The notes below the pieces were generated by a model, which saw only the letters and a program-made list of their open reading frames with translations, had not been told where the DNA came from and ran no database searches. This document shows, piece after piece, positions 6,767 through 40,744 of a stretch of 64,000 bases of DNA (position 1 is its first letter; each line of letters opens with the position of its first letter). Source of the stretch: Candidatus Collierbacteria bacterium (GTDB lineage: Bacteria > Patescibacteriota > Microgenomatia > UBA1400 > JACPES01); the NCBI GenBank assembly GCA_016183365.1, contig JACPES010000003.1, positions 473,154 through 537,153 on the forward strand, in the 5' to 3' direction. The position numbers were made by a program, and so were the translations under genes.

Positions 6767-8341
6767 TTGCCAACTTCGCAAAAAGTAAAGCGCGAAACTC
6801 ATGTTGTATATAATGAGGATATGACTCCGTGGAAGAGGTTTTGTCGGGATTGGAAAGGAAAAAGGGTTTTAATTATGGGACTGGGACTTCAGGGCAGAGG
6901 AATTGGGGATGCAAAGTTGTTTTGCGAGGCTGGTTCACATGTAACTGTGACTGATTTAAAAAGTGAATCTCAACTTCAACTTGCGCTTGAACAATTAAAT
7001 GGTCTGTCGATTAGATTTGTGCTCGGGAAACATGAAGAGGAAGATTTTTGGACACACGACATGGTGCTCCAGAATCCTGACGTGCCGTCCAACTCTCCGT
7101 TTTTAGAAGTAGCCAAAAAAGCCGGAATACCGGTTAAAATGGACTCATCTCTTTTTGCCGTCTACTATCCGCTGCCGATAATCGGGATTACCGGGACGCG
7201 GGGGAAGACGACCACTACGATGATGATTTATGAGGTTTTGAAAAAATTATACAAAGGTAGCGTGTATTTGGGAGGGAATATACCGGATAAGGCGACGCTG
7301 GAGTTATTAAAAGAAATTAAAGAGCCTCAGAAGTATGCTTCCTTTGGCTCGTGGTCTACGTCCACGCACCCAAAGAGCGCAACTTTGGGGTTCGGGCGTA
7401 CCGGCGATTTTTTCCGGAGAAAAAAATCGGGTCCGTCCGAAAAAGGCATTGTGGTGTTGGAGTTATCCAGTTGGGAATTACAGGGTTGGCGCGATGAAAA
7501 AATTTCGCCCAATATTTCGGTGTTTACCAATTTCTATCAGGACCATTTGAATCGTTATGCGTCAATGGACGAGTATTTTCAGGATAAATTGGCGATTCTT
7601 CGATATCAGAAAAAAACTGACTGGGCAATTCTAAACGCCGACAATCCATGGACCAAAAAGGCAGCAACGGAAATAAATTCGCGTATCAAATGGTTTTCTT
7701 CCAAAGATTTGCCACAGGAGGCTTTACTTCATGTTCCGGGTGAACACAATCGCGCAAATGCGGCAGCTGCATTGGCAGTAGTTTCTGTGATTGGCGTGGG
7801 GGGAAAAGAAGGATTAGAAATATTGAAAAGATTTAGAGGTGTACCGTTCCGATTGGAAACGATCGCAACGATTGACGGAGTTGAATATATAAACGACACC
7901 ACTTCGACTACTCCGGCGGCCGGAATCGCGGCTCTGCGGGCGATGACAAAACCGGTGGTATTAATTACCGGTGGCTCGAGCAAAAAATTGGATTTAAAAC
8001 CGTTGGCGGAAGAGATCGTTGAAAGTTATAGGAAACACCGGGTTAAGCGGGTGGTTTTGTTAAGGGGAGAAGGGACGGATGAACTAATTGTTTATCTGAA
8101 GGCTTGTGAAGTTTCGTCCTGCAGAGCTGGATCCCGTTCCGCGGGACAAACTTCATACGGGAAACTGATTAACGGGGTTTATGGCGATTTTAAAGTTGCC
8201 GTAACCAGGGCCAGAGATTTGGCAATTTCAGGAGACGCGGTGTTATTGTCGCCGGGTTGCGCCAGCTTTTCCATGTTTAAAAACGAGTTTGACAGAGGCG
8301 AACAATTTAACCAAATCATCCGTAAATGGCAAAAAAAATAA
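6767..8341 (+). CDS. murD: UDP-N-acetylmuramoylalanine--D-glutamate ligase with a ~37-aa in-frame repeat-element insertion
   Basis: KRVLIMGLGLQGRG N-terminus, P-loop GITGTRGKTTTTMMI, Mur ligase C domain. Real start may be the ATG near 6821. Element A copy at ~7335-7447. Confidence 0.8.
   Translation: MPTSQKVKRETHVVYNEDMTPWKRFCRDWKGKRVLIMGLGLQGRGIGDAKLFCEAGSHVTVTDLKSESQLQLALEQLNGLSIRFVLGKHEEEDFWTHDMVLQNPDVPSNSPFLEVAKKAGIPVKMDSSLFAVYYPLPIIGITGTRGKTTTTMMIYEVLKKLYKGSVYLGGNIPDKATLELLKEIKEPQKYASFGSWSTSTHPKSATLGFGRTGDFFRRKKSGPSEKGIVVLELSSWELQGWRDEKISPNISVFTNFYQDHLNRYASMDEYFQDKLAILRYQKKTDWAILNADNPWTKKAATEINSRIKWFSSKDLPQEALLHVPGEHNRANAAAALAVVSVIGVGGKEGLEILKRFRGVPFRLETIATIDGVEYINDTTSTTPAAGIAALRAMTKPVVLITGGSSKKLDLKPLAEEIVESYRKHRVKRVVLLRGEGTDELIVYLKACEVSSCRAGSRSAGQTSYGKLINGVYGDFKVAVTRARDLAISGDAVLLSPGCASFSMFKNEFDRGEQFNQIIRKWQKK
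7335..7447 (+). repeat. Element A copy 1 (two-hairpin ~110-bp repeat), in frame inside murD
   Basis: GGCTCGTGGTCTACGTCCACGC...GGTTCGGGCGTACCGGCGATTTTTTCCGGAGAAAAAAATCGGGTCCGTCCGAAAA. Translated as FGSWSTSTHPKSATLGFGRTGDFFRRKKSGPSEKG. Confidence 0.8.
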
Positions 8342-9420
8342 CTCAAGTCAACCGGGAAAGGGTCAGAAGTTTACAGATTTTAGTTTTACTTTTTTTACTG
8401 TTAGGATTGGGAATGATAATGGTTTACGACTCTTCGGTAGCCGAGGCTCAAAGATTATTCGGTGATAAATTCTATTTTGTTAAACGCCATTTAATTTGGG
8501 TGACGTTGGGAATTGGCTTGATGACTGTGGTTTCTAAAATTCCGACTTCATTTATTAAAAAGTTCAGCCCGCACCTATTTGGTTTAAGCGCGGTATTACT
8601 GGCGGGGGTTTTAATTCCCGGGTTGGGGTCGGCGGCCCAGGGCGCTCGCCGCTGGTTTTACTTAGGAAAATCAATTTATTTTCAACCGTCTGAATTGGTT
8701 AAATTGTCCACGGTACTTTATTTCGCGGTGTGGTTAAAAAATAAACAACGGCTTTCTCACCCCTTGATTTTATTGGGAGTTATAATTTTTTTATTAATCC
8801 TTCAGCCTGATTTCGGGACGGCCATAATTATAACCGCCACCGGTTTTTTGATGATGTTTGTTTCCGGTCTGCCCTATAAAACTATTTTTACTTTAGTTCT
8901 GATTTGCACGCTGGCAGGATTGGGCTTATCCGTCAGTTCGTCCTATAGGCTAGAGAGAATAAAAACTTTTTTAGATCCCACCAAAGATCCTTACGGAAGT
9001 TCCTACCATATTAATCAGGCGTTAATTGCTTTTGGATCTGGAGGATGGTGGGGGTTGGGGTTGGGCAGATCCCGCCAAAAATTCGAATATTTGCCGGAAG
9101 CGTCTACAGATTCAATATTCGCGGTGGCCGGGGAAGAGTTGGGATTGGTAGGAGTAACGGTAATAATCTTAATTTTTATATTGTTGTACTGGCAGTTTTT
9201 TAGAGTGGCATTGAGGGAGAATGACGGCTACCGCAGGTTATTGGCTGTGGGTTTAAGCGGCTGGTTGTCTATTCAAACTTTGGTAAACTTAGGATCATTG
9301 ACGGCTTTAATGCCGATGACCGGCGTCCCATTGCCATTTATTTCATATGGAGGTTCAAGCTTAATAATTCAAATGCTGACATTGGGGATATTGCTTAGAA
9401 TAAACTTAACCCAGAAATGA
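8326..9420 (+). CDS. ftsW: SEDS family peptidoglycan glycosyltransferase FtsW
   Basis: 10-TM SEDS protein (QPDFGTAIII, ALMPMTGVPLPFISYGGSS) between murD and murG. Confidence 0.75.
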   Translation: MAKKITQVNRERVRSLQILVLLFLLLGLGMIMVYDSSVAEAQRLFGDKFYFVKRHLIWVTLGIGLMTVVSKIPTSFIKKFSPHLFGLSAVLLAGVLIPGLGSAAQGARRWFYLGKSIYFQPSELVKLSTVLYFAVWLKNKQRLSHPLILLGVIIFLLILQPDFGTAIIITATGFLMMFVSGLPYKTIFTLVLICTLAGLGLSVSSSYRLERIKTFLDPTKDPYGSSYHINQALIAFGSGGWWGLGLGRSRQKFEYLPEASTDSIFAVAGEELGLVGVTVIILIFILLYWQFFRVALRENDGYRRLLAVGLSGWLSIQTLVNLGSLTALMPMTGVPLPFISYGGSSLIIQMLTLGILLRINLTQK

Positions 9421-10526
9421 AGAACAAAAAACAAAGAACAAAAAACAAAGAACAAAAAACGTTTCTTCTGACCGGAACGCATATCACTCCGGCGGTGGCT
9501 TTAACGCAGGAAATATTTTCCCGTTTCCCGGGGGTCAGGGTAGTTTATATCGGCCGGAAAAAAAATAAGAACGGAGAGAAGTCGGTGGAAAAAGAGGAGA
9601 TAACCAGAATAGGGGCTGAATTTATCCCAATTTCGTTTGCCAAACTTAACCGATTTATATCCATTTCAATTTTAACGGAGTTTCTTAAAATTCCCGGCGG
9701 GTTGATCCGGGGCTTAACCTTGGTTAAGCGAATAAAACCTGATGTAGTGGTGTCTTTTGGAGGTTATACGTCTATTCCGATTATTCTCGCCGCTAAAATA
9801 TCAGGCGTCCCGATTATTGTCCATGAGCAAACTTTAGTCTGGGGGCTGGCCAATAGAATAGCCAGGGGGCTGGCCGATTATTCCGCCATTTCCTGGGCTA
9901 AAACCGCTGATAAAAAGTCAGTTTTAACCGGAAATCCCATACCCGAGGAAATTATTTTGGCCAAAAATAAAAAAATCCAACCAAACATTTTATTTATTAC
10001 CGGCGGCAGTCAGGGATCTCAAACGATTAATCGTTTAGTTGAACCGATATTACCAGTTTTGACCAAATATTTTTTTGTTTATCATCAAACCGGAAGTTTA
10101 GATTCCCACTCCGCCAGCTGGCGGAGTGGAATGACGGAATCGCGGAAAATGAAAAATTACGTTTCTGCGGAGTGGTTTCCGACTCCAATCGTCGCCGAAA
10201 TTTTCCAAAAATCAAAGATTGTGGTCAGTCGGTCAGGAGCTAATACAATTACTTATCTATCCTATTTTGGAATTCCTTCAATATTAATCCCCTTGCCGAT
10301 TTCCGGCGGAGGAGAACAATCGGTCAATGCTAATTTGTTAGCCGAAACCGGTTTGGCCACAGTATTAAATCAGGACGGCTTAACCTCCGAAAAATTATTG
10401 GAGGAGATTCTACGGATTAATAAAAATTATGATAGGATTTGGAAATCGGGAGCTGAAAATGCCGGGCGGCTGATTATTTCCGACTCGGCCGCAAAATTAC
10501 TGGATCTGGTTGCCAAAGTCCTATGA
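9417..10526 (+). CDS. murG: undecaprenyldiphospho-muramoylpentapeptide beta-N-acetylglucosaminyltransferase
   Basis: LLTGTHITPAVAL (GGTGGH-like) and ITGGSQGSQTIN motifs. N-terminus encoded by an AACAAAGAACAAAAAAC microsatellite (KQRTKNKEQK). Confidence 0.8.
   Translation: MKNKKQRTKNKEQKTFLLTGTHITPAVALTQEIFSRFPGVRVVYIGRKKNKNGEKSVEKEEITRIGAEFIPISFAKLNRFISISILTEFLKIPGGLIRGLTLVKRIKPDVVVSFGGYTSIPIILAAKISGVPIIVHEQTLVWGLANRIARGLADYSAISWAKTADKKSVLTGNPIPEEIILAKNKKIQPNILFITGGSQGSQTINRLVEPILPVLTKYFFVYHQTGSLDSHSASWRSGMTESRKMKNYVSAEWFPTPIVAEIFQKSKIVVSRSGANTITYLSYFGIPSILIPLPISGGGEQSVNANLLAETGLATVLNQDGLTSEKLLEEILRINKNYDRIWKSGAENAGRLIISDSAAKLLDLVAKVL
9421..9455 (+). repeat. in-frame microsatellite (AACAAAGAACAAAAAAC)n at the murG N-terminus
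   Basis: Direct tandem copies visible. Confidence 0.7.
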
Positions 10527-11212: not shown

Positions 11213-12526
11213 TTGCCAAAAAAAGAATATATGGTGAAATCGCAGTCTTTAGTTGGGATAGACATCGGGAGCAGTAAGATTACCACTTTAATCGCTCTTC
11301 GCTCAACAGAAACTCAGAGTATAAATGTGGTTGGAGTAGCTAGTTTGCCTTCAACCGGAGTAAAAAAATCTCAAATCGTAGATATTGACGCTGCCATTAA
11401 GTCCATTACCGCTTCGGTCGAGGCTGCCGAGAGAATGGCGGGGTTATCTATTTCCAAAGCGTTTATAAATATCGGCGGGTCCCTAATTGCCAGCCGGAAC
11501 AGCACCGGGGTGGTGGCTGTATCCGAACCGGAAGGAGAAATTACTGAAAGCGACGTCCGGAGAGTGATCGACTCGGCCCGGGCGGTATCTTTGCCGGCGG
11601 CCCAGGAAGTCCTGCATGTTTTACCGCGGCAATATAAAGTTGACGGTCAGGAAGGGATTAAGGATCCGGTCAGCATGACCGGAGTCAGGTTGGAGGCCGA
11701 AGCCCATTTGGTTTTAGGATCGACCACTTCAATTAGAAATTTAACCAAGTGTGTGACCGAATTAGGGATAGGGGTTGAAGGGTTGGTTTACAGTGGTTTG
11801 GCGGCATCCGAATCGGTCTTGACAGCTACTGAAAAAGAATTGGGAGTAGTTTTGGTAGACATCGGCGGCGGAACTACTTCCATCGCCATTTGGGTTGATG
11901 GATCGTTGGCTCATTCGGCAGTTTTGCCGATTGGGGCTAAAAATATTACCAATGATTTGGCTATAGGCATGAGGTTGGGTTTGGATGTGGCAGAAGAAGT
12001 TAAAAAGCATTTAGGCGATAAACTGAAGGCGCAGGTTTCAGACAAAGAAGAAAAAGACGGAGATTTCAAAGAAGGCGATTTGGATTTAGCCAAATTCGGA
12101 GCCGAAGAGCACATCAAAGCTTCCAGGAAAACTTTGGTCGAGGGAATCATCAGGCCCAGACTCCAAGAAATATTTTCGATGGTGGGGGAGTCGATTAAGG
12201 AATCCGGGTTTGGCGGCAGAACCCCGGCCGGAATAGTGATTACCGGCGGCGGGGCTAAAACTGTCGAGGTTGATACAATTTGTAAAAGGGTATTGTCTAT
12301 GCCCACCAGAGTCGGATCTCCCCATACCCTGAATGGTTTAGTAGACGATGTTCGTCGGGAGCCTGCATACGCGGTGAGCGAGGGTTTGATTTTATACGCC
12401 TCTAAATCGAGCGCTCCGTTGTCCCGAACCGGCGGTGGCATTTCGATTGTCAGGGGAATTACGGATAAGCTGCCAAAAGGAATGTTTGGCCGGGCGATAG
12501 AGTTTGTTAAACAATTCCTTCCATAA
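11213..12526 (+). CDS. ftsA: cell division protein FtsA
   Basis: Actin-fold phosphate-1 motif VGIDIGSSKITTLIA, VLVDIGGGTTSIAIW and GIVITGGGA. TTG start at 11213, or the ATG at 11231. Confidence 0.85.
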   Translation: MPKKEYMVKSQSLVGIDIGSSKITTLIALRSTETQSINVVGVASLPSTGVKKSQIVDIDAAIKSITASVEAAERMAGLSISKAFINIGGSLIASRNSTGVVAVSEPEGEITESDVRRVIDSARAVSLPAAQEVLHVLPRQYKVDGQEGIKDPVSMTGVRLEAEAHLVLGSTTSIRNLTKCVTELGIGVEGLVYSGLAASESVLTATEKELGVVLVDIGGGTTSIAIWVDGSLAHSAVLPIGAKNITNDLAIGMRLGLDVAEEVKKHLGDKLKAQVSDKEEKDGDFKEGDLDLAKFGAEEHIKASRKTLVEGIIRPRLQEIFSMVGESIKESGFGGRTPAGIVITGGGAKTVEVDTICKRVLSMPTRVGSPHTLNGLVDDVRREPAYAVSEGLILYASKSSAPLSRTGGGISIVRGITDKLPKGMFGRAIEFVKQFLP

Positions 12527-12650
12527 GCGATACGAATGGCACGGATAAGCATACGAATGATACGAATATTTGTGTAATTCGTATACGATTCGCCAGCCCG
12601 CCTGGACTTCGTCCATGCGAAGTGGTATCGCTTTTTCGTGGATTAGCATC
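12527..12650 (+). repeat. CGAATG-family element (C type) in the ftsA-ftsZ spacer
   Basis: GCGATACGAATGGCACGGATAAGCATACGAATGATACGAATATTTGTGTAATTCGTATACGATTCGCCAGCCCGCCTGGACTTCGTCCATGCGAAGTGGTATCGC. Confidence 0.7.
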
Positions 12651-12693
12651 GCTACTGGTTTTTGGGTAAACTTCTGTTATACTGGGAGTAAAC

Positions 12694-13815: not shown

Positions 13816-13875
13816 GGCGATCCCAATCTAGGAATGCATCCGAATGATCCGAATAATGTAGAATGTGCGAGTGAA
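13816..13875 (+). repeat. CGAATG-family element, partial (left half), ftsZ-downstream
   Basis: GGGCGATCCCAATCTAGGAATGCATCCGAATGATCCGAATAATGTAGAATGTGCG. Confidence 0.55.
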
Positions 13876-14274
13876 GAATTTGGTTCATGCAAAATTATCT
13901 TACGATCTTACCGGAATATTTTTTGCATTCACAACGAGTTGGGAAGATATTGTCGGGAAAAGCAATACGGCGATCGCTTAGAATTGTTATTGCGGGAAGC
14001 TAAATTTGAGTTTTCCCGCGCAGTAGACTTGTCATCATTCGGCCACTCATTAGTTAAAGGTAATCGGGCAGATTTTGTTGTGGATAATAAGATAGTTGTT
14101 GATTTGAAAACAAAGCCGGTAATTACCAAAGAAGATTATAATCAAATGCAACGTTATTTAAAAGGATCCTGGCTTGAATTGGGTTTAATTGTAAATTTCA
14201 GGAATAAGTATCTTAAACCGAAGAGAGTGCTTAATATCGAAAGGTTTCATTCGGATAATTCTGATCGCTTATGA
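13834..14274 (+). CDS. GxxExxY family protein (PD-(D/E)xK-like); N-terminal ~25 aa read from a repeat element
   Basis: C-terminal two-thirds match the GxxExxY family pattern (RADFVVDNKIVVDLKTK ... LGLIVNFRNKYLKPKRV). The 5' end overlaps a CGAATG-family repeat. Confidence 0.45.
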   Translation: MHPNDPNNVECASEEFGSCKIILRSYRNIFCIHNELGRYCREKQYGDRLELLLREAKFEFSRAVDLSSFGHSLVKGNRADFVVDNKIVVDLKTKPVITKEDYNQMQRYLKGSWLELGLIVNFRNKYLKPKRVLNIERFHSDNSDRL

Positions 14275-17200
14275 GAAAATCAGCATTAATGCCGTCACTA
14301 TTCCAGGAAATCCCTCCACATCCTGACTTTATAAAAATAGAGGAGGAATTGTTGGACCATTGGTATCGGGACGGGATTGTTAAAAAATATCTTCATAAAA
14401 ACGATAAATCTCCGACAAAGTTTTCTTTCTTGGACGGGCCGATAACCGCCAATAATCCGATGGGCGTCCATCATGGCCGGGGCCGGTCGTATAAAGATTT
14501 ATGGCAAAAATATCATACCATGAAGGGCGACAGGGGAAGATATCAAAATGGTTTTGATTGTCAGGGGCTATGGGTGGAAGTTGAAGTGGAAAAGGAATTG
14601 GGCTTCAAGAACAAAAAAGAAATATTAACTTACGGAGTGGAGAAATTTGTCCAAAAGTGTCGGGAAAGAGCCTTGAAGTTTGCCGCCGTTCAAACAGAAC
14701 AGAGCAAACGTTTAGGGATGTGGGCTGATTGGGGAAATGATTATTACACCATGTCCGACGAAAACAATTATGCCATCTGGAATTTTCTTAAAGTTTGCCA
14801 TCAGCGGGGATGGATATATAAAGGAAATGATTCGGTGCCGTGGTGTCCACGGTGCGAGACCGCGATTAGTCAACACGAAATGTTGACGGAAGACTATAAG
14901 CAGGTGACGCATAAGGCGATATATTTGGAATTGCCGATAACAAAAAACAAAAAACAAAAAACGAAAAACAAGGAAAATGAATATCTATTGATTTGGACCA
15001 CTACGCCGTGGACGATTCCGGCCAATATTGCGGTGGCGGTGGATGAGAAGCTGGAATATGCGCTGGTAAAAGGCAAAACCGGAGATAAATTTTGGATTGC
15101 CAAAGACGCTGTGGACAGAGTTTTCGGGAGTGAACACCAGGGAATAGTCAAAATCGTTAAGGGAAAAGAATTGGTGGGATTGAAATACCGCGGACCCTTT
15201 GATGATTTGCCGACGGTGAAAAAAGTAGCAGAAGAATTTCCGGATAAATTTCACACCGTTGTTCCGGCTGATCCATTAATTCTGTCGATAACCGTTACCG
15301 ACGGAACAGGATTGGTACATACAGCGGTTTCGGCCGGAAGCGAAGATTTTAAATTGGGTAAGAAGCTTGGTTTGCCGATGGTGCCGGTCATCGCGGATAA
15401 CGCTGATTATTTAGACGGATTAGGATTTTTAACCGGAAAAAATGGCAAGAAGAACCCGGCACTGATTCTGGATTATCTTGCCGAGAGAGATAAGTCAGCC
15501 GGAGAAAACTGGGTTTTTGAAATTCAGGATTATCCACACCGTTATCCGGCGTGCTGGAGGTGTAAAACCGAATTGGTATGGAAAGTGACGGATGAATGGT
15601 ATATAGCGATGGATAAGCCCCAAAAGGAATCTTACTTCGGCTCGTGGTCTACGTCCACGCAGCCGAAGAACGATCCTTCGAGGTTCGGTCGTACCAGCGA
15701 ATTTTTGCAGAGCAAAAATCCGGGTCCGTCCGAAAAATCAAAGACGCTTAGGGAGCAGATGAAAGAAGTGACGAAGCAAATCAGGTGGATACCGGGATTT
15801 GGTTTAGACAGAGAATTGGATTGGTTGAATAATATGCATGATTGGTTGATCTCTAAAAAGAATAGGTTTTGGGGATTGGCTTTGCCGATTTGGGAATGCG
15901 ATAAATGCGGATATTTTGATGTAATCGGGGGAAAAAATGAACTTCGTGAAATGGCTGTGAAAGGATTGGATAAATTTAATGGTCATTCTCCGCATAAACC
16001 ATGGATTGATGAGATAAAAATGAAATGCGATAAATGCGAGTCTATGATGTCACGGATAGAACCGGTGGGAAATCCTTGGTTGGATGCCGGAATAGTTCCG
16101 TTTTCGACACTACCCGAAGATTGGTTTCCGGCGGATTTTATTACGGAGTCTTTTCCCGGCCAGTTTAAAAATTGGTTCTATTCGTTGATAGTTATGTCAA
16201 CTGTTTTGGCCGGAAAAAATCCGTTCAAAACAGTTTTGGGATTTGAATCAGTGGTGGGTGAAGACGGCCGGCCGATGCATAAAAGCTGGGGAAACGCGAT
16301 TAATTTTAACGAAGGGGCCGGCAAAATTGGGGTAGATGTTATGCGCTGGATGTATGCCAAAGTCTCTCCTACTTTTGTTTTACCATTCGGATATAAGACA
16401 GGCGATGAAATCAGGAGAAGATTTTTGCTTATTTTATGGAACTCTTTCAGGTTTTTTGTGACCAATGCCAAGGCGGATGGGTGGAAGCCGCAACGATTTA
16501 CGATTTACGATCCTTCGACAGACTCAGGACAAGTTTTACGGTTTACGAATGTCTTGGATAGATGGATATTGGCACGATTGGATGAAACGATCGAAAAAGT
16601 TACCGATTCATTGGATGACTACCAATCGGCGCCGGCAACAGAGGCCTTGGAAAAATTTACCGAAGATTTTTCAACTTGGTATATCAGAAGATCAAGAGAT
16701 AGGGTAGGGCCAACGGCCGGAGGACAGGATAAAGAAAACTGTTATCAAGCCATGTATTCGGTTTTGACCACTTTGTGCCGGTTGTTGGCCCCGTTTATGC
16801 CGTTTATAACCGACTATATGTATATGAATTTAACCGGAGAAGAATCGGTGCATTTGGCGGAATGGCCGGAGGCAAAAAGCAAAGAGCAAAAAACAAAAAG
16901 CAACCAGGAAATTATTGATCGGATGCGGCAAGTTAGGGAAATAGTGGGGTTAGGTCACGCCCAAAGGAAACTGGCGGGAATTCCTTTGCGCCAACCATTG
17001 TCGTCTATAACCGTTTCCGGTCCTGCTATCAATCCGCCTTTTGAGCAGGAGTTTATCAGTTTGATGGCTGATGAATTAAATGTCGAAAAAGTGATTTTTG
17101 AAACCGGAAGTTCACAGGAGTTAGAAGTTAAGCTAGACACTCAATTAACTTCGGAACTCAAGGTCAAAGGAAGGGCCCGGGAGATTATCCGGACGATCCA

Positions 17201-17345
17201 AAAAATGCGCAAAGAAAAGGGTGTGGGTTTGAGTGATGAAATTTCGGTCGAATTGCCGGAGTGGCCGAAGGAATTTGAAGACCAAATTAAAAAATCCACC
17301 CTAGCTGTTAAGATTGAATTCGGAAAAAAGCCGAAATTGAAATGA
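14271..17345 (+). CDS. ileS: isoleucyl-tRNA synthetase (class I), carrying three in-frame repeat insertions
   Basis: 1024 aa. HIGH-region analogue PITANNPMGVHHGRG, KMSKS-like MHKSWGN, CWRC zinc-knuckle editing/anticodon regions. Valyl-tRNA synthetase cannot be fully excluded by eye. Confidence 0.7.
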   Translation: MRKSALMPSLFQEIPPHPDFIKIEEELLDHWYRDGIVKKYLHKNDKSPTKFSFLDGPITANNPMGVHHGRGRSYKDLWQKYHTMKGDRGRYQNGFDCQGLWVEVEVEKELGFKNKKEILTYGVEKFVQKCRERALKFAAVQTEQSKRLGMWADWGNDYYTMSDENNYAIWNFLKVCHQRGWIYKGNDSVPWCPRCETAISQHEMLTEDYKQVTHKAIYLELPITKNKKQKTKNKENEYLLIWTTTPWTIPANIAVAVDEKLEYALVKGKTGDKFWIAKDAVDRVFGSEHQGIVKIVKGKELVGLKYRGPFDDLPTVKKVAEEFPDKFHTVVPADPLILSITVTDGTGLVHTAVSAGSEDFKLGKKLGLPMVPVIADNADYLDGLGFLTGKNGKKNPALILDYLAERDKSAGENWVFEIQDYPHRYPACWRCKTELVWKVTDEWYIAMDKPQKESYFGSWSTSTQPKNDPSRFGRTSEFLQSKNPGPSEKSKTLREQMKEVTKQIRWIPGFGLDRELDWLNNMHDWLISKKNRFWGLALPIWECDKCGYFDVIGGKNELREMAVKGLDKFNGHSPHKPWIDEIKMKCDKCESMMSRIEPVGNPWLDAGIVPFSTLPEDWFPADFITESFPGQFKNWFYSLIVMSTVLAGKNPFKTVLGFESVVGEDGRPMHKSWGNAINFNEGAGKIGVDVMRWMYAKVSPTFVLPFGYKTGDEIRRRFLLILWNSFRFFVTNAKADGWKPQRFTIYDPSTDSGQVLRFTNVLDRWILARLDETIEKVTDSLDDYQSAPATEALEKFTEDFSTWYIRRSRDRVGPTAGGQDKENCYQAMYSVLTTLCRLLAPFMPFITDYMYMNLTGEESVHLAEWPEAKSKEQKTKSNQEIIDRMRQVREIVGLGHAQRKLAGIPLRQPLSSITVSGPAINPPFEQEFISLMADELNVEKVIFETGSSQELEVKLDTQLTSELKVKGRAREIIRTIQKMRKEKGVGLSDEISVELPEWPKEFEDQIKKSTLAVKIEFGKKPKLK
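14935..14978 (+). repeat. in-frame ACAAAAAAC-type microsatellite in ileS
   Basis: CAAAAAACAAAAAACAAAAAACGAAAAACAAGG, encoding KNKKQKTKNKE. Confidence 0.7.
15633..15738 (+). repeat. Element A copy 2, in frame inside ileS
   Basis: CTTCGGCTCGTGGTCTACGTCCACGCAGCCGAAG...GGTTCGGTCGTACCAGCGAATTTTTGCAGAGCAAAAATCCGGGTCCGTCCGAAAA. Translated as FGSWSTSTQPKNDPSRFGRTSEFLQSKNPGPSEKS. Confidence 0.8.
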
Positions 17346-18761: not shown

Positions 18762-18762
18762 A

Positions 18763-29957: not shown

Positions 29958-30712
29958 AATTGACTGCAATAGTTTTGATTGGGCAAAATGACAAGATGAA
30001 AGCTAAACAGGCAATAGATTCTTTGTCGTTTGCGGATGAAATAATTGTAGTTAAGGAAAAATTTCCGATTAATGATTTTGGCGAAGTCAGGAATAGGGCT
30101 TTGGATAGGGCTAAAGGAGAATGGGTGTTGTTTGTGGATAGTGATGAAAAAGTGACGCAACAACTCGCTAGAGAAATCAAGCGAGTTATCAAATTTTCAA
30201 GCCAAGGTTATTTTTTACAGCGACAAGATAAATTTCTTGGTAGGTGGTTGAAGCATGGGGAGACGGCCAGTGTCAAATTGTTGAGATTAGCTAAAAAAAA
30301 TGCCGGCCGATGGGTTAGGCCGGTGCATGAAGTATGGAAGGTTAAGGGCGAAACAGGGGAATTGAAGAATCCCCTATTGCATTATTCTCATGAAGCGGTC
30401 GAAGGGATGGTTGAGAAATTAGACAGATATAGCGGGATGGAGGCGGGGTATAAAAATAGACAAATGGTTAGATGGTTAGAATGGTTAAAATGGCTGAACT
30501 GTATTCGATTAATATCGTTTCCTGTAGGCAAATTCGTCCTTAACTATTTTTTTCGTCTGGGGTTTTTGGACGGGATGGAGGGATTTATCCACGCCGGAAT
30601 GATGAGCGGGCATTCGTTTTTGGTACGAGCGAAGCTCTTAAAGCGGTACGAATCTACCTGCCAGATTTCGCATGGACGAAGTCCAGATGGGCGGGCGAAT
30701 TCATCCGAATGA
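29954..30712 (+). CDS. GT2-family glycosyltransferase (LPS-core-type)
   Basis: LTAIVLIGQNDK...VLFVDSDEKV (DxD). C-terminal 18 aa read through a CGAATG-family repeat. Confidence 0.6.
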   Translation: MKLTAIVLIGQNDKMKAKQAIDSLSFADEIIVVKEKFPINDFGEVRNRALDRAKGEWVLFVDSDEKVTQQLAREIKRVIKFSSQGYFLQRQDKFLGRWLKHGETASVKLLRLAKKNAGRWVRPVHEVWKVKGETGELKNPLLHYSHEAVEGMVEKLDRYSGMEAGYKNRQMVRWLEWLKWLNCIRLISFPVGKFVLNYFFRLGFLDGMEGFIHAGMMSGHSFLVRAKLLKRYESTCQISHGRSPDGRANSSE

Positions 30713-30725
30713 TACGAATAAATAA
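30630..30725 (-). repeat. CGAATG-family element (C type) in inverted orientation, spanning the GT2 3' end and the ligase 5' end
   Basis: Reverse complement ATTCGTATCATTCGGATGAATTCGCCCGCCCATCTGGACTTCGTCCATGCGAAATCTG matches 12570-12630. Confidence 0.7.
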
Positions 30726-31914
30726 ATTGATGGGATTACTATTTTTAGTCGGGTGGGTGGCGGGGCAAATTACCAGATGGCATGGGAGTTTTCCGGTGAC
30801 GATTCTTGATATGGCGGTGGGGGGAATAGTGATTACGGGAGGGATAAAAGGAGTAAAGAGGATTAAAGGGGTAGGTTTGATATTAATAGCGTCGTGGATT
30901 TTAAGTTTGAGATTATTTTCTTTGGAGCAATCTGTTTCGGGAGGGCTTTATCTTTTAAGGTTTTTGGGGTATTTGTGGATCATTGCCAATGCTGATAAAT
31001 TGTTGGCTCCGGTTAAGAAACTGATTGTACCGGCTTTTTGGATTTTCGTGATTTTTGCTTGGATTCAATACTTGTTTTTGCCGGATACCAGATTTTTGCT
31101 TCAATACGGATGGGATGAGCATTATTATCGGATGATCGGAACGGTGCTGGATCCGAATTATTTGGGGGTGATGTTGGGGATGGTGGGGATATATTTAATA
31201 TACAAATATACAAATAGACAAATAGACAAATGGGGGAAAATATTATTGGCGTTTACTTTTGGCGGATTGGCGCTGACTTATTCTAGAGCGAGTTGGATGG
31301 CGGTTTTAGTATCTGGTATCTGGTATATGGTATATGGGTTGAGCCCCAGCACTACGCTTACTTGCTCCCGTGGTTTACATCCACGCGTCGCAAGAGCGCG
31401 AGTGCGGGGTTCGGGCGTACCAACTGATTTTTCTGGAGAAAAATCAGGGTTCGTCCGAAGGGGATTAGGGATATTGGGCATACTGGGTGTAGTTGCAATA
31501 CTCGGAATATGGTTCATGGCGCCAAAACCCGGTGGGGAAGGAATTAATTTATGGAGGACCAGTTCGATTGAGCAGAGAATTGAAAGTTGGCGGGAGGGAA
31601 TAAATGTTTGGCGGGAACATCCGTGGGTTGGAGTGGGATTTAATAACTATGCAGCGGCTAGAGATAAAGTACCAGAAGAAAGAAATCATGCTGAGAACGC
31701 GCCGAGCAGTAGCTGGATTTTGCTATTGGCGACGACGGGGATTATAGGAATGGGTTGGTTAGCGATGGTTGGATGGTTGGCAGTCAGAAATTCAAATAGA
31801 TTGCTGGTGGGGATTTTGGTGATGATCGGAATTCACTCAATTTTGAATAATACCATTTTTTATCCACCAATTTTGGGTTTATTAGCTATGATTAAGGTTG
31901 CCAACGCAGAGTAA
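30709..31914 (+). CDS. O-antigen ligase/polymerase-like (Wzy_C domain) membrane protein with in-frame Element A insertion
   Basis: Multi-TM protein with Wzy_C hallmark LALTYSRASWMAVLV and a periplasmic loop. Confidence 0.55.
   Translation: MIRINKLMGLLFLVGWVAGQITRWHGSFPVTILDMAVGGIVITGGIKGVKRIKGVGLILIASWILSLRLFSLEQSVSGGLYLLRFLGYLWIIANADKLLAPVKKLIVPAFWIFVIFAWIQYLFLPDTRFLLQYGWDEHYYRMIGTVLDPNYLGVMLGMVGIYLIYKYTNRQIDKWGKILLAFTFGGLALTYSRASWMAVLVSGIWYMVYGLSPSTTLTCSRGLHPRVARARVRGSGVPTDFSGEKSGFVRRGLGILGILGVVAILGIWFMAPKPGGEGINLWRTSSIEQRIESWREGINVWREHPWVGVGFNNYAAARDKVPEERNHAENAPSSSWILLLATTGIIGMGWLAMVGWLAVRNSNRLLVGILVMIGIHSILNNTIFYPPILGLLAMIKVANAE
31345..31462 (+). repeat. Element A copy 3 (subfamily 2), in frame inside the O-antigen-ligase-like gene
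   Basis: AGCACTACGCTTAC...CGCGAGTGCGGGGTTCGGGCGTACCAACTGATTTTTCTGGAGAAAAATCAGGGTTCGTCCGAAG. Translated as ...RVRGSGVPTDFSGEKSGFVRRG. Confidence 0.75.
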
Positions 31915-34394: not shown

Positions 34395-34413
34395 AATCAA
34401 CTGACTACAAATT

Positions 34414-34484: not shown

Positions 34485-34519
34485 CCCGAGTCTAACTCGG
34501 TTTATCCGAGGGAGATGAG

Positions 34520-34545
34520 GAGGGAAGTCTGACTTCCCCATTTTA
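34520..34545 (+). terminator. rho-independent terminator-like hairpin after tRNA-Gly
   Basis: GGGAAGTC-T-GACTTCCC stem followed by ATTTT. Confidence 0.4.
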
Positions 34546-34756
34546 CTGTATATAATTTATAAAAACGTTAGACGTTTCAATTTTTATAAAAGATCGTAAG
34601 CATTGGAATAAGTTAGTAGAAAAACTTCGGGCAGAAGGAAGTGAATCGGCGACAAAATGTCACGGTTTGAAAATGTTGGTTGTTGACGGAAAAGCGTGTA
34701 GATTGGCAATGCTATAGCATAGTCAATCTACAATAAATTAATCTAAAGATAGATAT

Positions 34757-35368: not shown

Positions 35369-35453
35369 AATGAAAGTAGGTACTTTCGCTGACGAAACTA
35401 ACTACTTTCGGATAGTAAATAATACGAAGGTAAATGTCAAGAGGGGAAATTTG

Positions 35454-35527
35454 CGGGGCCGACGGGATTCGAACCCGCGACCTCCTGCGTGACAGGCAGG
35501 CGCTCTAACCAACTGAGCTACGACCCC
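35454..35527 (-). tRNA. tRNA-Asp (anticodon GUC)
   Basis: Reverse complement GGGGTCGTAGCTCAGTTGGTTAGAGCGCCTGCCTGTCACGCAGGAGGTCGCGGGTTCGAATCCCGTCGGCCCCG. Anticodon loop CTGTCAC. Confidence 0.85.
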
Positions 35528-35571
35528 ACATTTACAGTTTATGATACCATTTTTGGGAGGAGAAGAAGCTT

Positions 35572-37374
35572 ATGGTAGCGGTTTCTAACAATCAATCTAT
35601 CGCCAAAATGCTGTTTGAGGTGGCGGCGGTTTTGGAAGTGACCGGAGGCGACCGATTCAGAATTCGGGCTTATCGGGAAGCGGCCAACTCGATCGAGACT
35701 TATCCGGTCGAAGTCCGTGATTTGTGGGAGCACAGGAATTTAGGAGATGTGGCCGGAGTAGGAAAAGCTATGGCCGGTTATTTGGATGAATTTTTTAGGA
35801 CCGGAAAGGTAAAACATTTTGATTCTATTAAAAAGAAAGTCCCGGCCGGAATGTTTCCTTTGCTTAATGTGAGTGAGATCGGGCCTAAGACGGCTTTTGT
35901 CCTTTCTAAAGAGCTGGGGTTAGTTAAGGCCCAAATTGCGATTGATAAGCTTAAAAGAGCTGCTACGGACGGTGAGATAGCCAAGATTGAAGGCTTCGGG
36001 GAAGAATCTCAAGCAAAGATTTTATCCGCTATCAAGGAAGCCGAGTCGAGAGAAAATAAGATACTTTTACCTGTGGCCCAAGAGTTGGCAGATAAAGTTA
36101 TTGGCTATCTCCAAAAACAGCCCGGGATTATTAAAGTCGAGGCTTTGGGTAGTTTGAGAAGAAAATCTGCTTTAGTCGGAGATATAGATATAGGCGTTGC
36201 CGTTTCAAACCCGAAAGCAATCGCGGAAAGTTTTATCAAATTTCCTGAATTTATCAAGATATTGGCAACCGGAGACAAAGTTTGCCGGGCGATTCACCGC
36301 ACCGGACGGCAAGTTGACTTAAAAATTGAGCCGTTGGAAAGTTTTGGTTCTATGTTGCAACATTTTACGGGGAGTAAGGAACATAATATTGCTTTGAGGG
36401 AGTACGCGCTGAAAAAAGGTTACTCGTTGTCGGAGCATGGGGTTAGAGAACAGAAAGCAGAGAACAGAGAACAGGAATCAGGAAACAAGAAACAGGGAAT
36501 AAGAAGGTTCGGAACGGAAGAAGAATTTTATAAAGCCCTCGGCATGCCGTGGATTCCGCCGGAATTGCGGGAAAATCGCGGAGAGATTGAAGTCGGCTTA
36601 TCAGGCAAACTTCCAAAGTTGCTGGAATTATTAGATATCAAAGGCGATTTTCATACCCATTCTGATTTTGATATTGAAACCAGCCATGATACCGGAGCTT
36701 CAGGTTTAATTGATCTGGTAAATACTGCTAAAAGATTGGGATACGAATACATCGCTGTATCTGATCACAATCCGTCTACTTCAAATCACAATCATAATCA
36801 AATAATAGACCTTATAAAGCGGAGAAATGATTATATTGATAAATTTATTTCATCTCATGAAATGGATGTGAAAATAAAAATATTTAAATCCCTCGAAATA
36901 GATATATCCGGCGATGGATCAATCGCTATTCCAGATTCGGCATTGGAGCTTTTGGATTTTGGCATAATTTCAATTCACAGTCAGTTTGTTGCCGACGAGA
37001 GCAAGCAAACGGCCAGAATTTTAAGAGCTCTTTCACATCCTAAAGTCAAAATACTGGGCCATCCGACTGGCAGGCAGCTCTTAAAACGGAACGGAATCAA
37101 TTGCGATTGGGATAAAATATTTGATTTTTGCTCCCAAAAAAATATTTGGTTGGAAGCTAACGGAAATCCGTTTAGAATGGATTTGCCGGATCAATTAATC
37201 CAGAAGGCAAAGAATTTTGGGGTTAAATTTACTTTGGGTACAGACAGCCATAATTTCAGTCAGATGGAGTATATGCCGTCCGGAGTTTCGTTGGCAAGAA
37301 GGGGATGGCTTGAGAAGAAAGACGTGATAAACTGTTTGGAATATAATGAAGTAAAAGAAAAGTTAAAAGGCTGA
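35572..37374 (+). CDS. polX: DNA polymerase X family with C-terminal PHP phosphoesterase domain
   Basis: HhH motifs, nucleotidyltransferase motif GSLRRKSALVGDIDIGV, PHP motif FHTHSDFD. A 20-aa Q/E/K/N-rich microsatellite insert sits between the domains. Confidence 0.8.
   Translation: MVAVSNNQSIAKMLFEVAAVLEVTGGDRFRIRAYREAANSIETYPVEVRDLWEHRNLGDVAGVGKAMAGYLDEFFRTGKVKHFDSIKKKVPAGMFPLLNVSEIGPKTAFVLSKELGLVKAQIAIDKLKRAATDGEIAKIEGFGEESQAKILSAIKEAESRENKILLPVAQELADKVIGYLQKQPGIIKVEALGSLRRKSALVGDIDIGVAVSNPKAIAESFIKFPEFIKILATGDKVCRAIHRTGRQVDLKIEPLESFGSMLQHFTGSKEHNIALREYALKKGYSLSEHGVREQKAENREQESGNKKQGIRRFGTEEEFYKALGMPWIPPELRENRGEIEVGLSGKLPKLLELLDIKGDFHTHSDFDIETSHDTGASGLIDLVNTAKRLGYEYIAVSDHNPSTSNHNHNQIIDLIKRRNDYIDKFISSHEMDVKIKIFKSLEIDISGDGSIAIPDSALELLDFGIISIHSQFVADESKQTARILRALSHPKVKILGHPTGRQLLKRNGINCDWDKIFDFCSQKNIWLEANGNPFRMDLPDQLIQKAKNFGVKFTLGTDSHNFSQMEYMPSGVSLARRGWLEKKDVINCLEYNEVKEKLKG
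36440..36500 (+). repeat. in-frame GAACAGA/GAAACAAGAAACAG purine-rich repeat tract in polX
   Basis: GAACAGAAAGCAGAGAACAGAGAACAGGAATCAGGAAACAAGAAACAGGG. Confidence 0.65.
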
Positions 37375-37420
37375 AAGGTTAAAAAGGTTGAAAAGGTTAG
37401 AAAGGTTGAAAGAGAGGCGG
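37370..37420 (+). repeat. intergenic (AAAGGTTGAAA)n tract between polX and lemA; a related copy lies at 59375-59405
   Basis: GGCTGAAAGGTTAAAAAGGTTGAAAAGGTTAGAAAGGTTGAAAGAG. Confidence 0.6.
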
Positions 37421-37430
37421 TGATAATTTT

Positions 37431-38018
37431 ATGAATTTAACAGTAATTTTAATAGCCTTAGCAGTAATAGCTTTAGGCTACATAGTTTCCACATATAATT
37501 CGTTTCAGACGATTAAAACCAGAATTAAAGCCAGCATTCAGGAGATTGGCAATCAGTTGAAAAGACAGACGGATTTAATTCCAAATCTGGAAACCAGTGT
37601 TAAGGGATACCTGAAACACGAGAAGTCGATTTTTGACAAACTGACTGATGCCCGGAAATCCGTGTCGGAAGCGGTGAAAACCGGTAATTTAAATAACGCC
37701 CAAGACGCGGCCGGAAAGCTGACCCAATTGATTCCGGCATTGCAGGTTTTGGTTGAGAGTAACCCGGAACTTAAGGCGAATACGACTGTCGCCAGTTTGA
37801 TGGATGAACTAAGGGATACTTCCGACAAAGTGATGTATTCTAGACGGACATTAATTGATTTAACGGCTGATTACAACCAAATGCTGGTGACTTTCCCCTC
37901 CAATATGGTTGGTAATTTATTCGGGATGAAGCAAGAAAAGGGCTTGGAGATGCCGGAAAGCGGAGAATTTTTGAAGGTGTCGGCAGATGAGACAAAGAGC
38001 CCGAAAGTGGAACTGTAA
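37431..38018 (+). CDS. lemA: LemA family protein
   Basis: N-terminal TM helix plus YNSFQTIKTRIKASIQEIGNQLKRQTDLIPNL, the LemA signature. Confidence 0.8.
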   Translation: MNLTVILIALAVIALGYIVSTYNSFQTIKTRIKASIQEIGNQLKRQTDLIPNLETSVKGYLKHEKSIFDKLTDARKSVSEAVKTGNLNNAQDAAGKLTQLIPALQVLVESNPELKANTTVASLMDELRDTSDKVMYSRRTLIDLTADYNQMLVTFPSNMVGNLFGMKQEKGLEMPESGEFLKVSADETKSPKVEL

Positions 38019-38020
38019 TA

Positions 38021-38107
38021 GCGATCCGAATGATTCTAATAATCATCCGAATGTTCCGAATAGAAGAAATTCGGATAATTCGAATGTCATTCGTGGATTT
38101 GGATCGC
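38021..38107 (+). repeat. CGAATG-family element (B type) in the lemA-htpX spacer
   Basis: GCGATCCGAATGATTCTAATAATCATCCGAATGTTCCGAATAGAAGAAATTCGGATAATTCGAATGTCATTCGTGGATTTGGATCGC, co-linear with the 3233-3317 copy. Confidence 0.8.
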
Positions 38108-38115
38108 GTTGATGT

Positions 38116-39072: not shown

Positions 39073-39106
39073 ATAGAAAAAGATGAATTGGTGATATCAT
39101 AGCTTC

Positions 39107-40744
39107 ATGGGTTCTTCGATAACAAAACAACAAGTTCAGCACGTGGCGAAACTGGCCAATCTTCAACTTTCTGAAGAAGAATTAGAGCTTTACACCAAGC
39201 AGATTAAGGATATCGTAGGTTATGTCGAGCAACTTGATAAGGTTAAAGTCGACGGAGTGAAACCGACTTATCAGACGTTAGATGGTATGGTTAATGTTTG
39301 GCGGGAAGATGAAGTCGGGATGAGTTTGAGCCAGAATGAAGCGTTGTCGCAAGCTAAAAGAATTGTGGATGGGTATTTTGTAGCCGCTCCAGCACTACGT
39401 TTGCCACTCCCCCTGATCAAATCGGGACGTCGTGGTGTCGCGAGTGCGGAATTCGGGCGTACCAGCGAATTTTTTCAGAGCAAGAATTCGGGTCTGTCCG
39501 AAAATAAATATAACGCGATTTTGACGGAGGTGGATGAAAAGGGAGCGGTTGGGCATAAGGATTTGTTTTTGACAAAGGGGGTCAGAAGCAGCGCAGGATC
39601 AAATGTCTTGCGGGAATATTTGCCGCAATATTCTTCAACCGTAGTTGAACTTTTGGAGAAAGCCGGATTTAAGACAAAATATAAGTTGAATTGCGACGCT
39701 TGGGCCCATGGCAGTAGCGGAGAAAATTCTGATTTTGGGTCGACAAAAAATCCGTGGAATGAGGAATTTACTCCCGGCGGGTCGTCCAGCGGGTCGGCCG
39801 CGGCGGTAGCCGCCGGACTGGTGGATGTCGCCACCGGCACCGATACCGGCGGGTCGATTCGGCTGCCGGCCAGTTTTTGCAACTTGGTGGGATTAAAGTC
39901 GACTTACGGGGCATTGAGCCGGTATGGAATTGTGGCGATGGCGTCGAGTTTGGATTCACCGGGAGTAATTGGGAAATCAGTTAGAGAGGTGAAGAAAGTT
40001 TTCAAAGTGATGGCGGGGAAGGATGAAAGGGATGCGACCAGTCTGGATAGTGTAAAAAGGCCCGGCCTTGTTTTAACAAGGCCGGGCATTATCAGAATTG
40101 GAATTCCAAAGGAATATTTTGATAAAGGGATTGATTTGGAAGTTAGACAAGCGGTCATGACAGCGGTTAAAATTTTGGAGAAGAACGGGTTTAAGATTCA
40201 GGAAATTTCTTTACCGAATTCAAAATACGGAATCGCGGTTTATTACTTGGTCCAAACCACCGAAGTTTCCAGCAATTTAGGCCGATACGATGGTATTCGG
40301 TATGGTTTCGGGCGAGAAAGTTTCGGGGCCGAGGCGAAGCGGCGAATTATGCTGGGGACATTTGCCTCGTCGGCCGGATATTCCGCCAAGTTTTTTGAGA
40401 AAGCCGCTAAGGTGAGAACCTTGATAATTCAGGATTTTGAAAAGGCGTTTAATTCGTCGGCTGACGGAGTGGACGTGATTTTAGGGCCGGTGTCGTCGAC
40501 ACCGCCGTTTAAATTGGGAGAAAAAGCCAATGATCCTTTAACCATGTATTTGTCGGATATTTTGACGGTGTCGGTGAATTTGGCCGGATTGCCGGCGTTG
40601 GCGTTGCCTTGCGGTTTTTCGAAACATAACTTACCGATCGGAATGCAGTTGATAGGGCCACGGTGGTCGGAAAATTTATTGTTTGACGTTGGTGAAGTTT
40701 ATCAAAGTTTGACCAAGTGGCACACCAAAAAGCCACAGGTTTAA
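39107..40744 (+). CDS. gatCA: Glu/Asp-tRNA amidotransferase subunits C and A, translationally fused through an Element A repeat copy
   Basis: Residues 1-95 are GatC (QVQHVAKLANLQLSEEELELYTKQ...). Residues ~130-545 are GatA with the amidase signature GGSSSGSAAAVAAGLVDVATGTDTGGSIRLPA. The frame is continuous across the repeat at ~39392-39505. Confidence 0.75.
   Translation: MGSSITKQQVQHVAKLANLQLSEEELELYTKQIKDIVGYVEQLDKVKVDGVKPTYQTLDGMVNVWREDEVGMSLSQNEALSQAKRIVDGYFVAAPALRLPLPLIKSGRRGVASAEFGRTSEFFQSKNSGLSENKYNAILTEVDEKGAVGHKDLFLTKGVRSSAGSNVLREYLPQYSSTVVELLEKAGFKTKYKLNCDAWAHGSSGENSDFGSTKNPWNEEFTPGGSSSGSAAAVAAGLVDVATGTDTGGSIRLPASFCNLVGLKSTYGALSRYGIVAMASSLDSPGVIGKSVREVKKVFKVMAGKDERDATSLDSVKRPGLVLTRPGIIRIGIPKEYFDKGIDLEVRQAVMTAVKILEKNGFKIQEISLPNSKYGIAVYYLVQTTEVSSNLGRYDGIRYGFGRESFGAEAKRRIMLGTFASSAGYSAKFFEKAAKVRTLIIQDFEKAFNSSADGVDVILGPVSSTPPFKLGEKANDPLTMYLSDILTVSVNLAGLPALALPCGFSKHNLPIGMQLIGPRWSENLLFDVGEVYQSLTKWHTKKPQV
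39392..39505 (+). repeat. Element A copy 4 (subfamily 2), bridging gatC and gatA in frame
   Basis: AGCACTACGTTTGCC...CGCGAGTGCGGAATTCGGGCGTACCAGCGAATTTTTTCAGAGCAAGAATTCGGGTCTGTCCGAAAA. Translated as ...AEFGRTSEFFQSKNSGLSENK. Confidence 0.8.
40057..40090 (+). repeat. Element D copy, in frame in the gatA portion
   Basis: AAGGCCCGGCCTTGTT-TT-AACAAGGCCGGGCATT. Confidence 0.75.

Follow-up and report, generated by a model that had tools for sequence, protein, structure and literature searches.

The window analysed here, a stretch of 64,000 nucleotides from Candidatus Collierbacteria (contig JACPES010000003.1 of assembly GCA_016183365.1, positions 473,154 to 537,153), contains four copies of a two-hairpin repeat of about 117 nt, all of them inside protein-coding genes. 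We think that this element probably belongs to a family of selfish palindromic repeats that are small, non-autonomous, and confined to one lineage, Candidatus Collierbacteria (Microgenomates, in the candidate phyla radiation, CPR). An earlier reading of the same DNA, made without database searches and referred to below as the original prediction, had described the four copies and had taken the host to be CPR-like. The host assignment agrees with our finding that the GatCA protein encoded in the window is 100% identical to an NCBI Candidatus Collierbacteria protein.

The four copies are co-linear and lie on the coding strand of the window genes, as originally described. We built a covariance model from 17 family members and used it to scan the window. 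The four copies, all on the + strand, matched at 101-133 bits (E 2e-22 to 2.5e-30), and the model found no fifth copy, either in the window or in flanking sequence of the same strain (about 20 kb). The right-hairpin pattern had four matches with zero mismatches in the window, compared to about 1.3 expected by chance even when up to three mismatches were allowed, and a repeat finder recovered the same copies as families D2 and D4. Each copy is inside an uninterrupted open reading frame (ORF), and the Pfam assignments of the host proteins are MurD, IleS, Wzy_C, and GatC plus Amidase.

Copy 1 (positions 7323-7444, 132.6 bits) is in murD (ORF 6767/6875-8341), with its left hairpin at 7325-7390 and its right hairpin at 7391-7441; it has a predicted RNA folding energy of -44 kcal/mol and the translation EPQKYASFGSWSTSTHPKSATLGFGRTGDFFRRKKSGPSEK. 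Copy 2 (15616-15737, 127.7 bits) is in ileS (ORF 14271-17345), with hairpins at 15618-15683 and 15684-15734, a fold z-score of -5.9, and the translation KPQKESYFGSWSTSTQPKNDPSRFGRTSEFLQSKNPGPSEK. The left boundaries of these two copies had been placed 10-17 nt too far to the right. Copy 3 (31342-31462, 133.3 bits) is in the gene for an O-antigen-ligase-like membrane protein of the Wzy_C family (ORF 30709-31914), with its right hairpin at 31410-31459 and a fold z-score of -5.9. Its reading register is different and gives SPSTTLTCSRGLHPRVARARVRGSGVPTDFSGEKSGFVRRG, a loop rich in Arg with a hydrophobic segment on each side. Copy 4 (39385-39505, 100.9 bits) is in gatCA (ORF 39107-40744), in the part encoding the linker between the GatC and GatA domains. 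This copy is the most diverged and has a changed left-hairpin apex; its right hairpin is at 39452-39502 and its translation is APALRLPLPLIKSGRRGVASAEFGRTSEFFQSKNSGLSEN.

The element consists of two hairpins back to back. Its length is 113-120 nt (about 117 nt), of which the left hairpin takes up approximately 66 nt and the right hairpin approximately 51 nt. RNA folding produced two adjacent, stable hairpins in every copy (-44 to -62 kcal/mol; z-scores of -2.2 to -5.9). The left hairpin is a nested structure, bounded by CCCCAG and CGGGG, with CGTGGTCTACGTCCACG as its conserved apex. The small left palindrome noted originally is indeed present, but it is merely the apex of this larger hairpin, and CGCGAGTGCGG, which had been regarded as an alternative palindrome, is actually the 3' arm of the outer stem. 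The right hairpin has an invariant base, TTCGGGCGTACC / GGTCCGTCCGAA, in which 12 basal pairs, a fixed G-T wobble among them, are without any variation in 17 copies and are flanked by a fixed T/C mismatch. The third-codon positions of TTC GGG CGT ACC in this base are also invariant, indicating a constraint on nucleotides and not on the peptide. The two termini of the element are not paired with each other: the left end, CCCCAG, pairs with CGGGG of the left hairpin, and the right end, CCGAA, pairs with TTCGG.

Variation among the copies preserves base pairing. We aligned 17 copies, four from the window and 13 from other loci (15 independent sites plus two orthologous pairs; loci are labelled L and proteins P below). 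Standard pairs were formed in 96.8% of the pair cells, compared to 81% after column shuffles and 30-55% with slid partners. Compensatory changes on both sides were found in 19 of the 39 pairs, and the covariation score was 0.415, compared to 0.118, with none of 500 shuffles reaching the observed value. At variable pairs there were eight G-U and nine A-C combinations, that is, a symmetric distribution apart from the one invariant G-T, so that pairing at the RNA level and pairing at the DNA level are not distinguishable. Template switching at quasi-palindromes could yield part of the compensatory pattern without selection. Several variants of the element exist that differ chiefly by compensatory changes in the left hairpin, and they replace the two subfamilies originally proposed. 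No curated Rfam 15 model matched the elements, which gave only chance miRNA-like matches at E 0.5-10; the Rfam scan of the window yielded only six tRNAs above the gathering threshold. Judging from the aligned sequences, what is conserved is the nucleotides and their pairing, and not the encoded peptide.

The in-gene copies appear to be translated. All 11 of the full-length in-gene copies are in a host frame that is free of stop codons for that particular copy (joint P of about 0.01 for a random choice of frame), which argues for translation. From these sequences, we infer that the element is read through by the ribosome as a disordered loop of about 40 residues. Every copy with a TGA in the frame containing the motif FGRT (the FGRT frame) is either in another frame, antisense to a gene, or between genes. 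Copy 3 has a stop codon in the FGRT frame, which is therefore unusable in that copy, and the intergenic copies have stops in 3-6 of the six frames. Stop codons are depleted more generally: each forward frame and one reverse frame are open in 11-13 of the 17 copies, compared to about four in shuffled sequences. This depletion in four of the six frames indicates an unusual tolerability inside genes.

Removal of the element before translation, either as an intron-like RNA or by excision from the DNA, would leave the host proteins uninterrupted, and we regard it as very unlikely. In its favor, the element is a compact, strongly structured RNA or DNA with covariation, and CPR bacteria are known for insertions in rRNA genes. 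However, all in-gene copies keep an open frame and restore the frame downstream (the stop-free part alone has a P of about 0.01), and excision would not need either property. Furthermore, with E values as high as 10 allowed, the elements still did not match any ribozyme or intron family of Rfam, and because their two ends are in separate hairpins and do not pair with each other, no splice-junction helix can be drawn.

The preference for one reading frame is more simply explained by selection on tolerability than by register-specific insertion. The original prediction was that all copies are read in the same frame and that insertion might be targeted to one register. The FGRT frame is used at nine of ten sense in-gene sites, and the excess over stop avoidance alone has a probability of roughly 6e-4 (by hand calculation from the open frames). 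The right hairpin is read as FGRT... in MurD, IleS, and GatCA, and one register off, as GSGVPTDFSGEK, in the O-antigen-ligase copy, so the claim of a common frame fails for one of the four window copies. In addition, a left hairpin shorter by 1 nt puts the left half of the GatCA copy in a register unlike that of murD and ileS. Among the variants, too, the register of the left half varies, which does not support a register-specific insertion mechanism. Encoded peptides differ in their properties from frame to frame. That of the FGRT frame (frame A) has a grand average of hydropathy (GRAVY) of -0.9 to -1.3 and a net charge of 0 to +5, making it the most hydrophilic and the least charged, whereas peptides from the alternative open frames have a net charge of +7 to +12 or contain a hydrophobic stretch. 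The near-neutral hydrophilic frame (...FGRTSEFFQSKNSGPSEK) is predominant in soluble enzymes, and the strongly basic frames are found only in membrane proteins, between hydrophobic segments. Targeting of insertion to one register is not needed, as the frame used follows from the stop-free frames of each subfamily together with the most hydrophilic peptide.

The element is restricted to one lineage, and within it is not limited to genes, to one strand, or to one frame. Scanning a genome collection with the right-hairpin pattern gave ten matches, of which only two were genuine copies, both in a Collierbacteria metagenome-assembled genome (MAG; L004 and L009); the others were unrelated GC-rich palindromes. 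There was no match in viral contigs. Altogether, the pattern scans found genuine copies only in the Collierbacteria MAG and in a few metagenome contigs, mostly from sample Ga0209211. A profile of five element peptides had no match in a word-indexed database of 5.8 billion proteins, for whose word filter such a query is too short. A frame-specific peptide profile searched against 1.84 billion representative proteins added another glycosyltransferase of family 2 (GT2), an HD-domain protein, and SufC.

The element is intragenic at 12 of 16 independent sites. Copies in the sense orientation and in the FGRT frame are in murD (window and L029, and another variant in L031), ileS (window and L011), gatCA, fmt (L009), a gene of the LCP family (L004, a partial copy), gatB (L012), a GT2 gene (L015), and murC (L017). 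The O-antigen-ligase copy of the window is in the sense orientation in another frame. Genes for two large, glycosyltransferase-like membrane proteins (L021 and L025) each have a copy in the antisense orientation, read in the only reverse frame that is free of stops. The intergenic copies come right after the stop codon of the upstream gene, in L020 (the rplF-rplR spacer), L024, L027, and probably L013. The impression that the element is always on the coding strand was thus an effect of the small sample in the window.

Two of the copies outside the window are incomplete or rearranged. The LCP-family copy (L004, positions 4099-4183) is truncated at its 5' end and consists of the right hairpin and the last 14 nt of the left hairpin, still in frame, indicating that partial copies can persist inside genes. 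Protein P0247 (267 aa, from the representative library) has the N-terminus of a GT2 joined to the C-terminus of Fmt exactly within the element. By its sequence, this protein would be either a metagenome assembly chimera across the repeat or the product of real recombination between copies.

Host proteins with and without the segment indicate that it was inserted in frame. In an alignment of 26 MurD proteins, the window protein and P0003 have the segment, and P0004 has a different variant at a distance of a few codons. The closest relative, P0002 (76% identical), does not have the segment, nor do P0010, P0011, P0013, P0015, P0018, and P0019; the orthologs without the element have a short loop, KEVQ-x-GIVVLELSS. 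In the DNA, the window murD loop is 120 nt longer than that of the L033 ortholog, the only clean pair of filled and empty sites. For ileS, a metagenome ortholog (L011) has the same copy at the same site, and other orthologs have unrelated short loops. When the short loops of L029, L033, and L031 were evaluated as possible remnants of the element, their local alignment scores were not above those of shuffled sequences (the fractions of shuffles that reached the score were 0.25, 0.89, and 0.06, respectively).

The segment is also absent from canonical homologs, as the original prediction stated. Compared with the MurD structure 3lk7, the window protein has about 40 extra residues opposite 11 residues (positions 148-158). 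In IleS, 47 query residues are opposite four residues (408-411) of the Thermus thermophilus IleRS structure 1ile. Both insertions are at short turns. In AlphaFold models, residues 150-189 of MurD (pLDDT 26-39) and the element-encoded residues 95-130 of GatCA (pLDDT 30-37) have no secondary structure, and the rest of each model is confident. These models and alignments are consistent with the proposal that insertions are tolerated as surface loops, and the encoded segment is predicted to be a disordered loop at a permissive position in the host protein. Several unrelated hairpin families occupy these positions as well, namely the loops of MurD, IleS, and GatB and the linker of GatCA, in other lineages.

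The copy described originally at the gatC-gatA junction is indeed between the GatC and GatA domains (Pfam residues 21-92 and 151-525, respectively), but it is in the interdomain linker of one native fusion and not between two genes. GatC and GatA form one polypeptide across the Microgenomates (Collier-, Woese-, and Beckwithbacteria), and fused homologs of 510-546 aa are common, including in relatives without the element. The fusion is therefore ancestral in Microgenomates, and a role of the element in making it is ruled out. The GatA part lacks approximately the first 54 positions of the Pfam Amidase domain, and the linker is highly variable among homologs (P0122-P0203).

It is extremely improbable that the segments are native loop sequences inherited vertically or assembly chimeras made by the repeat. 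Chimeras across the repeat do occur, if the joining of GT2 to Fmt in P0247 is taken as one. Against both possibilities, the 117-nt sequence is found in at least 15 unrelated contexts, intergenic spacers included, and the two flanks of every window copy belong to one gene. The closest MurD orthologs do not have the segment. In addition, the junctions of the element agree among independent assemblies from several runs, which argues against chimeras, and the sequence of murD with the element is identical in seven independent Logan contigs, just as the GatCA protein recurs in an NCBI MAG.

Based on this distribution, we favor spread of the element as a selfish repeat. Copies would spread to new sites by a mechanism that probably recognizes the invariant hairpin base and requires of the stems only that they pair. 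Most landing sites would be in genes, the genome being gene-dense. A copy in a gene would survive only if it provides a stop-free reading frame, if its net length preserves the frame downstream, and if the protein can take up the extra 38-41 residues at a linker, at a surface loop that is permissive, or between transmembrane helices, in a loop. The ribosome would then read straight through, and the element would become a disordered loop of the host protein. Mobility is supported by the copies in unrelated genes, antisense in two membrane proteins, and in four intergenic spacers.

Several observations weigh against a mobile selfish repeat. There was no transposase or partner gene in the window in Pfam searches of essentially all ORFs, and no related autonomous insertion sequence (IS) with matching ends in the window or in related loci totalling approximately 400 kb. 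In 398 kb of related DNA, no gene was bracketed by solo hairpins of the left or right type. The element has no terminal inverted repeats. No target-site duplication was detected: the longest strings shared by the 12-nt flanks are 2-4 nt and are inconsistent among the 17 copies. Comparisons of flanks with the interior of the element gave no signal of guide-target identity or complementarity (mean of 5.5 nt with the copy's own interior and 5.6-5.7 nt with the interiors of other copies). Without terminal inverted repeats, target-site duplications, or guide complementarity, mobility is deduced from distribution only. Moreover, the identity among copies of one genome is only 65-81%, unlike the outcome of a recent burst, and an old selfish insert evolving neutrally should diverge no more slowly than its flanks, which is not what the murD and ileS copies described below show.

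There is a weak purine bias just 5' of the left end of the element. Approximately half of the copies have (T)(A)AG before CCCC; of the 17 copies, 11 have G at position -1 and 10 have A at position -2; this is a small sample and the bias is confounded with the Lys and Glu codons of surface loops. The four copies of the window all point the same way, on the strand that is G-rich and probably the leading one. Together, the flank bias and the shared orientation would be compatible with a single-strand, hairpin-recognizing system of the Y1/HUH type, which we consider a lead. The GC skew of the + strand is strong and uniform, at 0.10-0.36 over the window and 0.36 in the glycosyltransferase cluster at 24-32 kb, and about 89% of the coding DNA of the window is on this strand.

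Copies at the same site in orthologs can be more similar than their surroundings. The murD elements of the window and L029 are identical at 113 of 117 positions, compared to about 65% identity for the flanks overall and 73-82% in the adjacent 60 nt. The ileS elements of the window and L011 are identical at 111 of 117 positions, compared to 72-88% for the flanks. The encoded peptides in two other genes do not follow this pattern: the element peptide is approximately 77% identical compared to 85% for the flanks in GT2 (L015 and P0244), and approximately 63% compared to 76% in fmt (L009 and P0247). Exact look-ups of the window IleS and of P0244 returned no record. Possible causes of the high identity at the same site are a nucleotide-level constraint in place, repeated insertion at the same site, or unsampled donors.

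The window murD is a mosaic. Its 5' end resembles L029 and L033, positions 7583-7880 resemble L031, L032, and L034 (82-85%), and its 3' end resembles L033 (85-88%), which indicates, on the basis of these identities, recombination among Collierbacteria lineages. Such recombination does not account for the identity of the murD copy with that of L029, as there is neither a tract of raised identity around the element nor a specifically closer relative in that region.

We also considered a protein-less element that is re-targeted to the same codon of orthologs, in a homing-like manner, or that is under purifying selection at the nucleotide level in place, a possibility that we regard as unlikely. 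It would explain why the murD and ileS elements, at 95-97% identity, exceed their flanks, even the adjoining 60 nt, and why the pattern of presence and absence departs from the MurD tree.

A functional nucleic-acid module kept by selection, for example an mRNA hairpin that paces translation or stabilizes the transcript, or a DNA site for a host protein, seems to us unlikely. In its favor, the orthologous copies exceed their flanks in identity (96.6% compared to about 65% in murD and 94.9% compared to 72-88% in ileS), and none of the 17 copies departs from the common sequence at the right-hairpin base. Six of the ten differences in the murD and ileS pairs are at unpaired or wobble-compatible positions, though about two thirds of all positions are paired. 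On the other hand, the window ileS copy has three pair-breaking changes relative to L011, and the element peptide is less conserved than the flanks in the GT2 and fmt pairs. The absence of the element does no apparent harm in close orthologs, other lineages have unrelated hairpin families in these loops, and the equal numbers of G-U and A-C combinations (eight and nine) give no sign of strand-specific RNA pairing.

In function, the Collierbacteria element behaves like the Rickettsia palindromic elements (RPEs; RPE-1 and related families, Ogata et al. 2000, summarized in PMC10969869), a parallel that was part of the original prediction and that our analysis supports by analogy, the comparison being with their description and not with their sequences. 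Like RPEs, it is a dispersed palindromic repeat of about 100-150 bp in a small genome, has many copies in frame in unrelated housekeeping genes, adds a peptide of about 40 residues that is read through at positions compatible with the fold (predicted in our case), and has no transposase of its own (PMC10969869). Unlike RPEs, it is in a host from an unrelated phylum (CPR/Patescibacteria, free-living or epibiotic, in groundwater) and is made of two tandem hairpins with an invariant 12-bp hairpin base. It further differs in that several unrelated hairpin families occupy the same loops and in that there are antisense in-frame copies in membrane proteins. Membership by descent in the Rickettsia families is implausible.

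The element was also compared with other repeat classes. [quoted passage not shown] The Collierbacteria element resembles MITEs such as Correia/NEMIS, ERIC, BOX, and RUP in being short, non-coding, structured, and multi-copy. Unlike them, it has ends that are not mutual inverted repeats, no target-site duplication or parent IS was found, and most of the detected copies (12 of 16 independent sites) are intragenic. It thus fails to show the terminal inverted repeats and target-site duplications by which classical MITEs are defined.

Palindrome-associated elements derived from IS200/IS605, and REP (repetitive extragenic palindromic) and BIME (bacterial interspersed mosaic element) sequences, are mobilized by Y1 (HUH) transposases. 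Classes of REP have been described (PMC3733652). In common with these elements, ours has its function in imperfect hairpins with fixed mismatches, has no target-site duplication, and shows a weak bias 5' of the left end, with the window copies in the same orientation. It differs from them in having two dissimilar hairpins, in that no Y1/HUH transposase gene (TnpA or RAYT) was seen in the 64-kb window, and, in the case of REPs, in that these are extragenic by definition. A link to the IS200/IS605 and REP systems would, by analogy, be a lead. Genes of nematomorph mitochondria contain hairpin-forming inverted repeats that are embedded in and translated with essential protein-coding genes (PMC6649704). 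Unlike the Collierbacteria element, these are long perfect inverted repeats in organelle genes and do not form a dispersed family of near-identical short sequences.

Our literature searches found no description of in-frame palindromic elements in CPR bacteria. An RPE-like element is new for CPR, and the phenomenon itself is already known from Rickettsia. To our knowledge, that genus is essentially the only textbook case of selfish DNA inserted in frame into genes for proteins. An independent and structurally different family in CPR would mean that the phenomenon recurs in small, gene-dense genomes. The family would provide a natural map of permissive loops in MurD, MurC, IleS, GatB, Fmt, and the GatCA linker, and the repeated occupation of the same loops by different hairpin families would be a clean system in which to study how insertions are selected against and how they serve as raw material in the evolution of proteins. 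Annotation is affected in practice, as CPR proteins become longer through such repeats, which may pass for domains specific to a lineage and can give rise to chimeric assemblies (P0247). If the high identity at the same site were due to re-insertion at specific sites or to a function in place, the element would represent a new type of mobile or regulatory nucleic acid.

The window contains other repeats inside or next to genes. A second, unrelated hairpin family (AAAGGCCNGGCC...GGCCNGGCCTTT), with stems of 13-18 bp, is inside the ORFs of three glycosyltransferase genes, gatCA, and gatB, at positions 25409-25453, 25522-25566, 25841-25885, 26269-26313, 29086-29130, 40046-40090, and 41404-41448. 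It is read in different frames (KGLAFEYKGQA, KRPGLVLTRPG). The gatB copy of this family is in the same GatB loop as the two-hairpin element of L012, and in relatives the second family (KARPLTTKARPF) takes the place that the two-hairpin element has in the GatCA linker of the window. In murD, another hairpin-coded insert (EVSSCRAGSRSAGQTS) is at positions 8107-8155, corresponding to residues 413-429 with pLDDT <50 in the AlphaFold model. This insert is common to P0002, P0006, and P0007, and different palindromic inserts (EVSQTS..VCETS and SLDPSARRRLLAQDD) are in its place in other lineages.

Two further types of repeat were seen. Direct repeats of the CGAATGATCCGAAT type (families D6 and D7; 3227-3276, 12521-12570, 13832-13856, 25174-25223, 30697-30721, and 38015-38064) are mostly at gene ends or junctions, and some overlap start or stop codons. 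An A-rich, low-complexity repeat (AACAAAAAACAAAGAAC; 9409-9469, 14939-14971, 16871-16903, 36449-36502, and 61343-61375) has a KNKKQKTKN-like translation and occurs twice inside IleS; the peptide motif is also found in P0247.

A gene for a PD-(D/E)XK nuclease (PF13366; 13834-14274) lies between ftsZ and ileS and has a D7 repeat at its start. The gene is absent from the otherwise syntenic L029 and L033, where ileS directly follows ftsZ. Judging from this arrangement, the nuclease gene is likely a separate mobile insertion.

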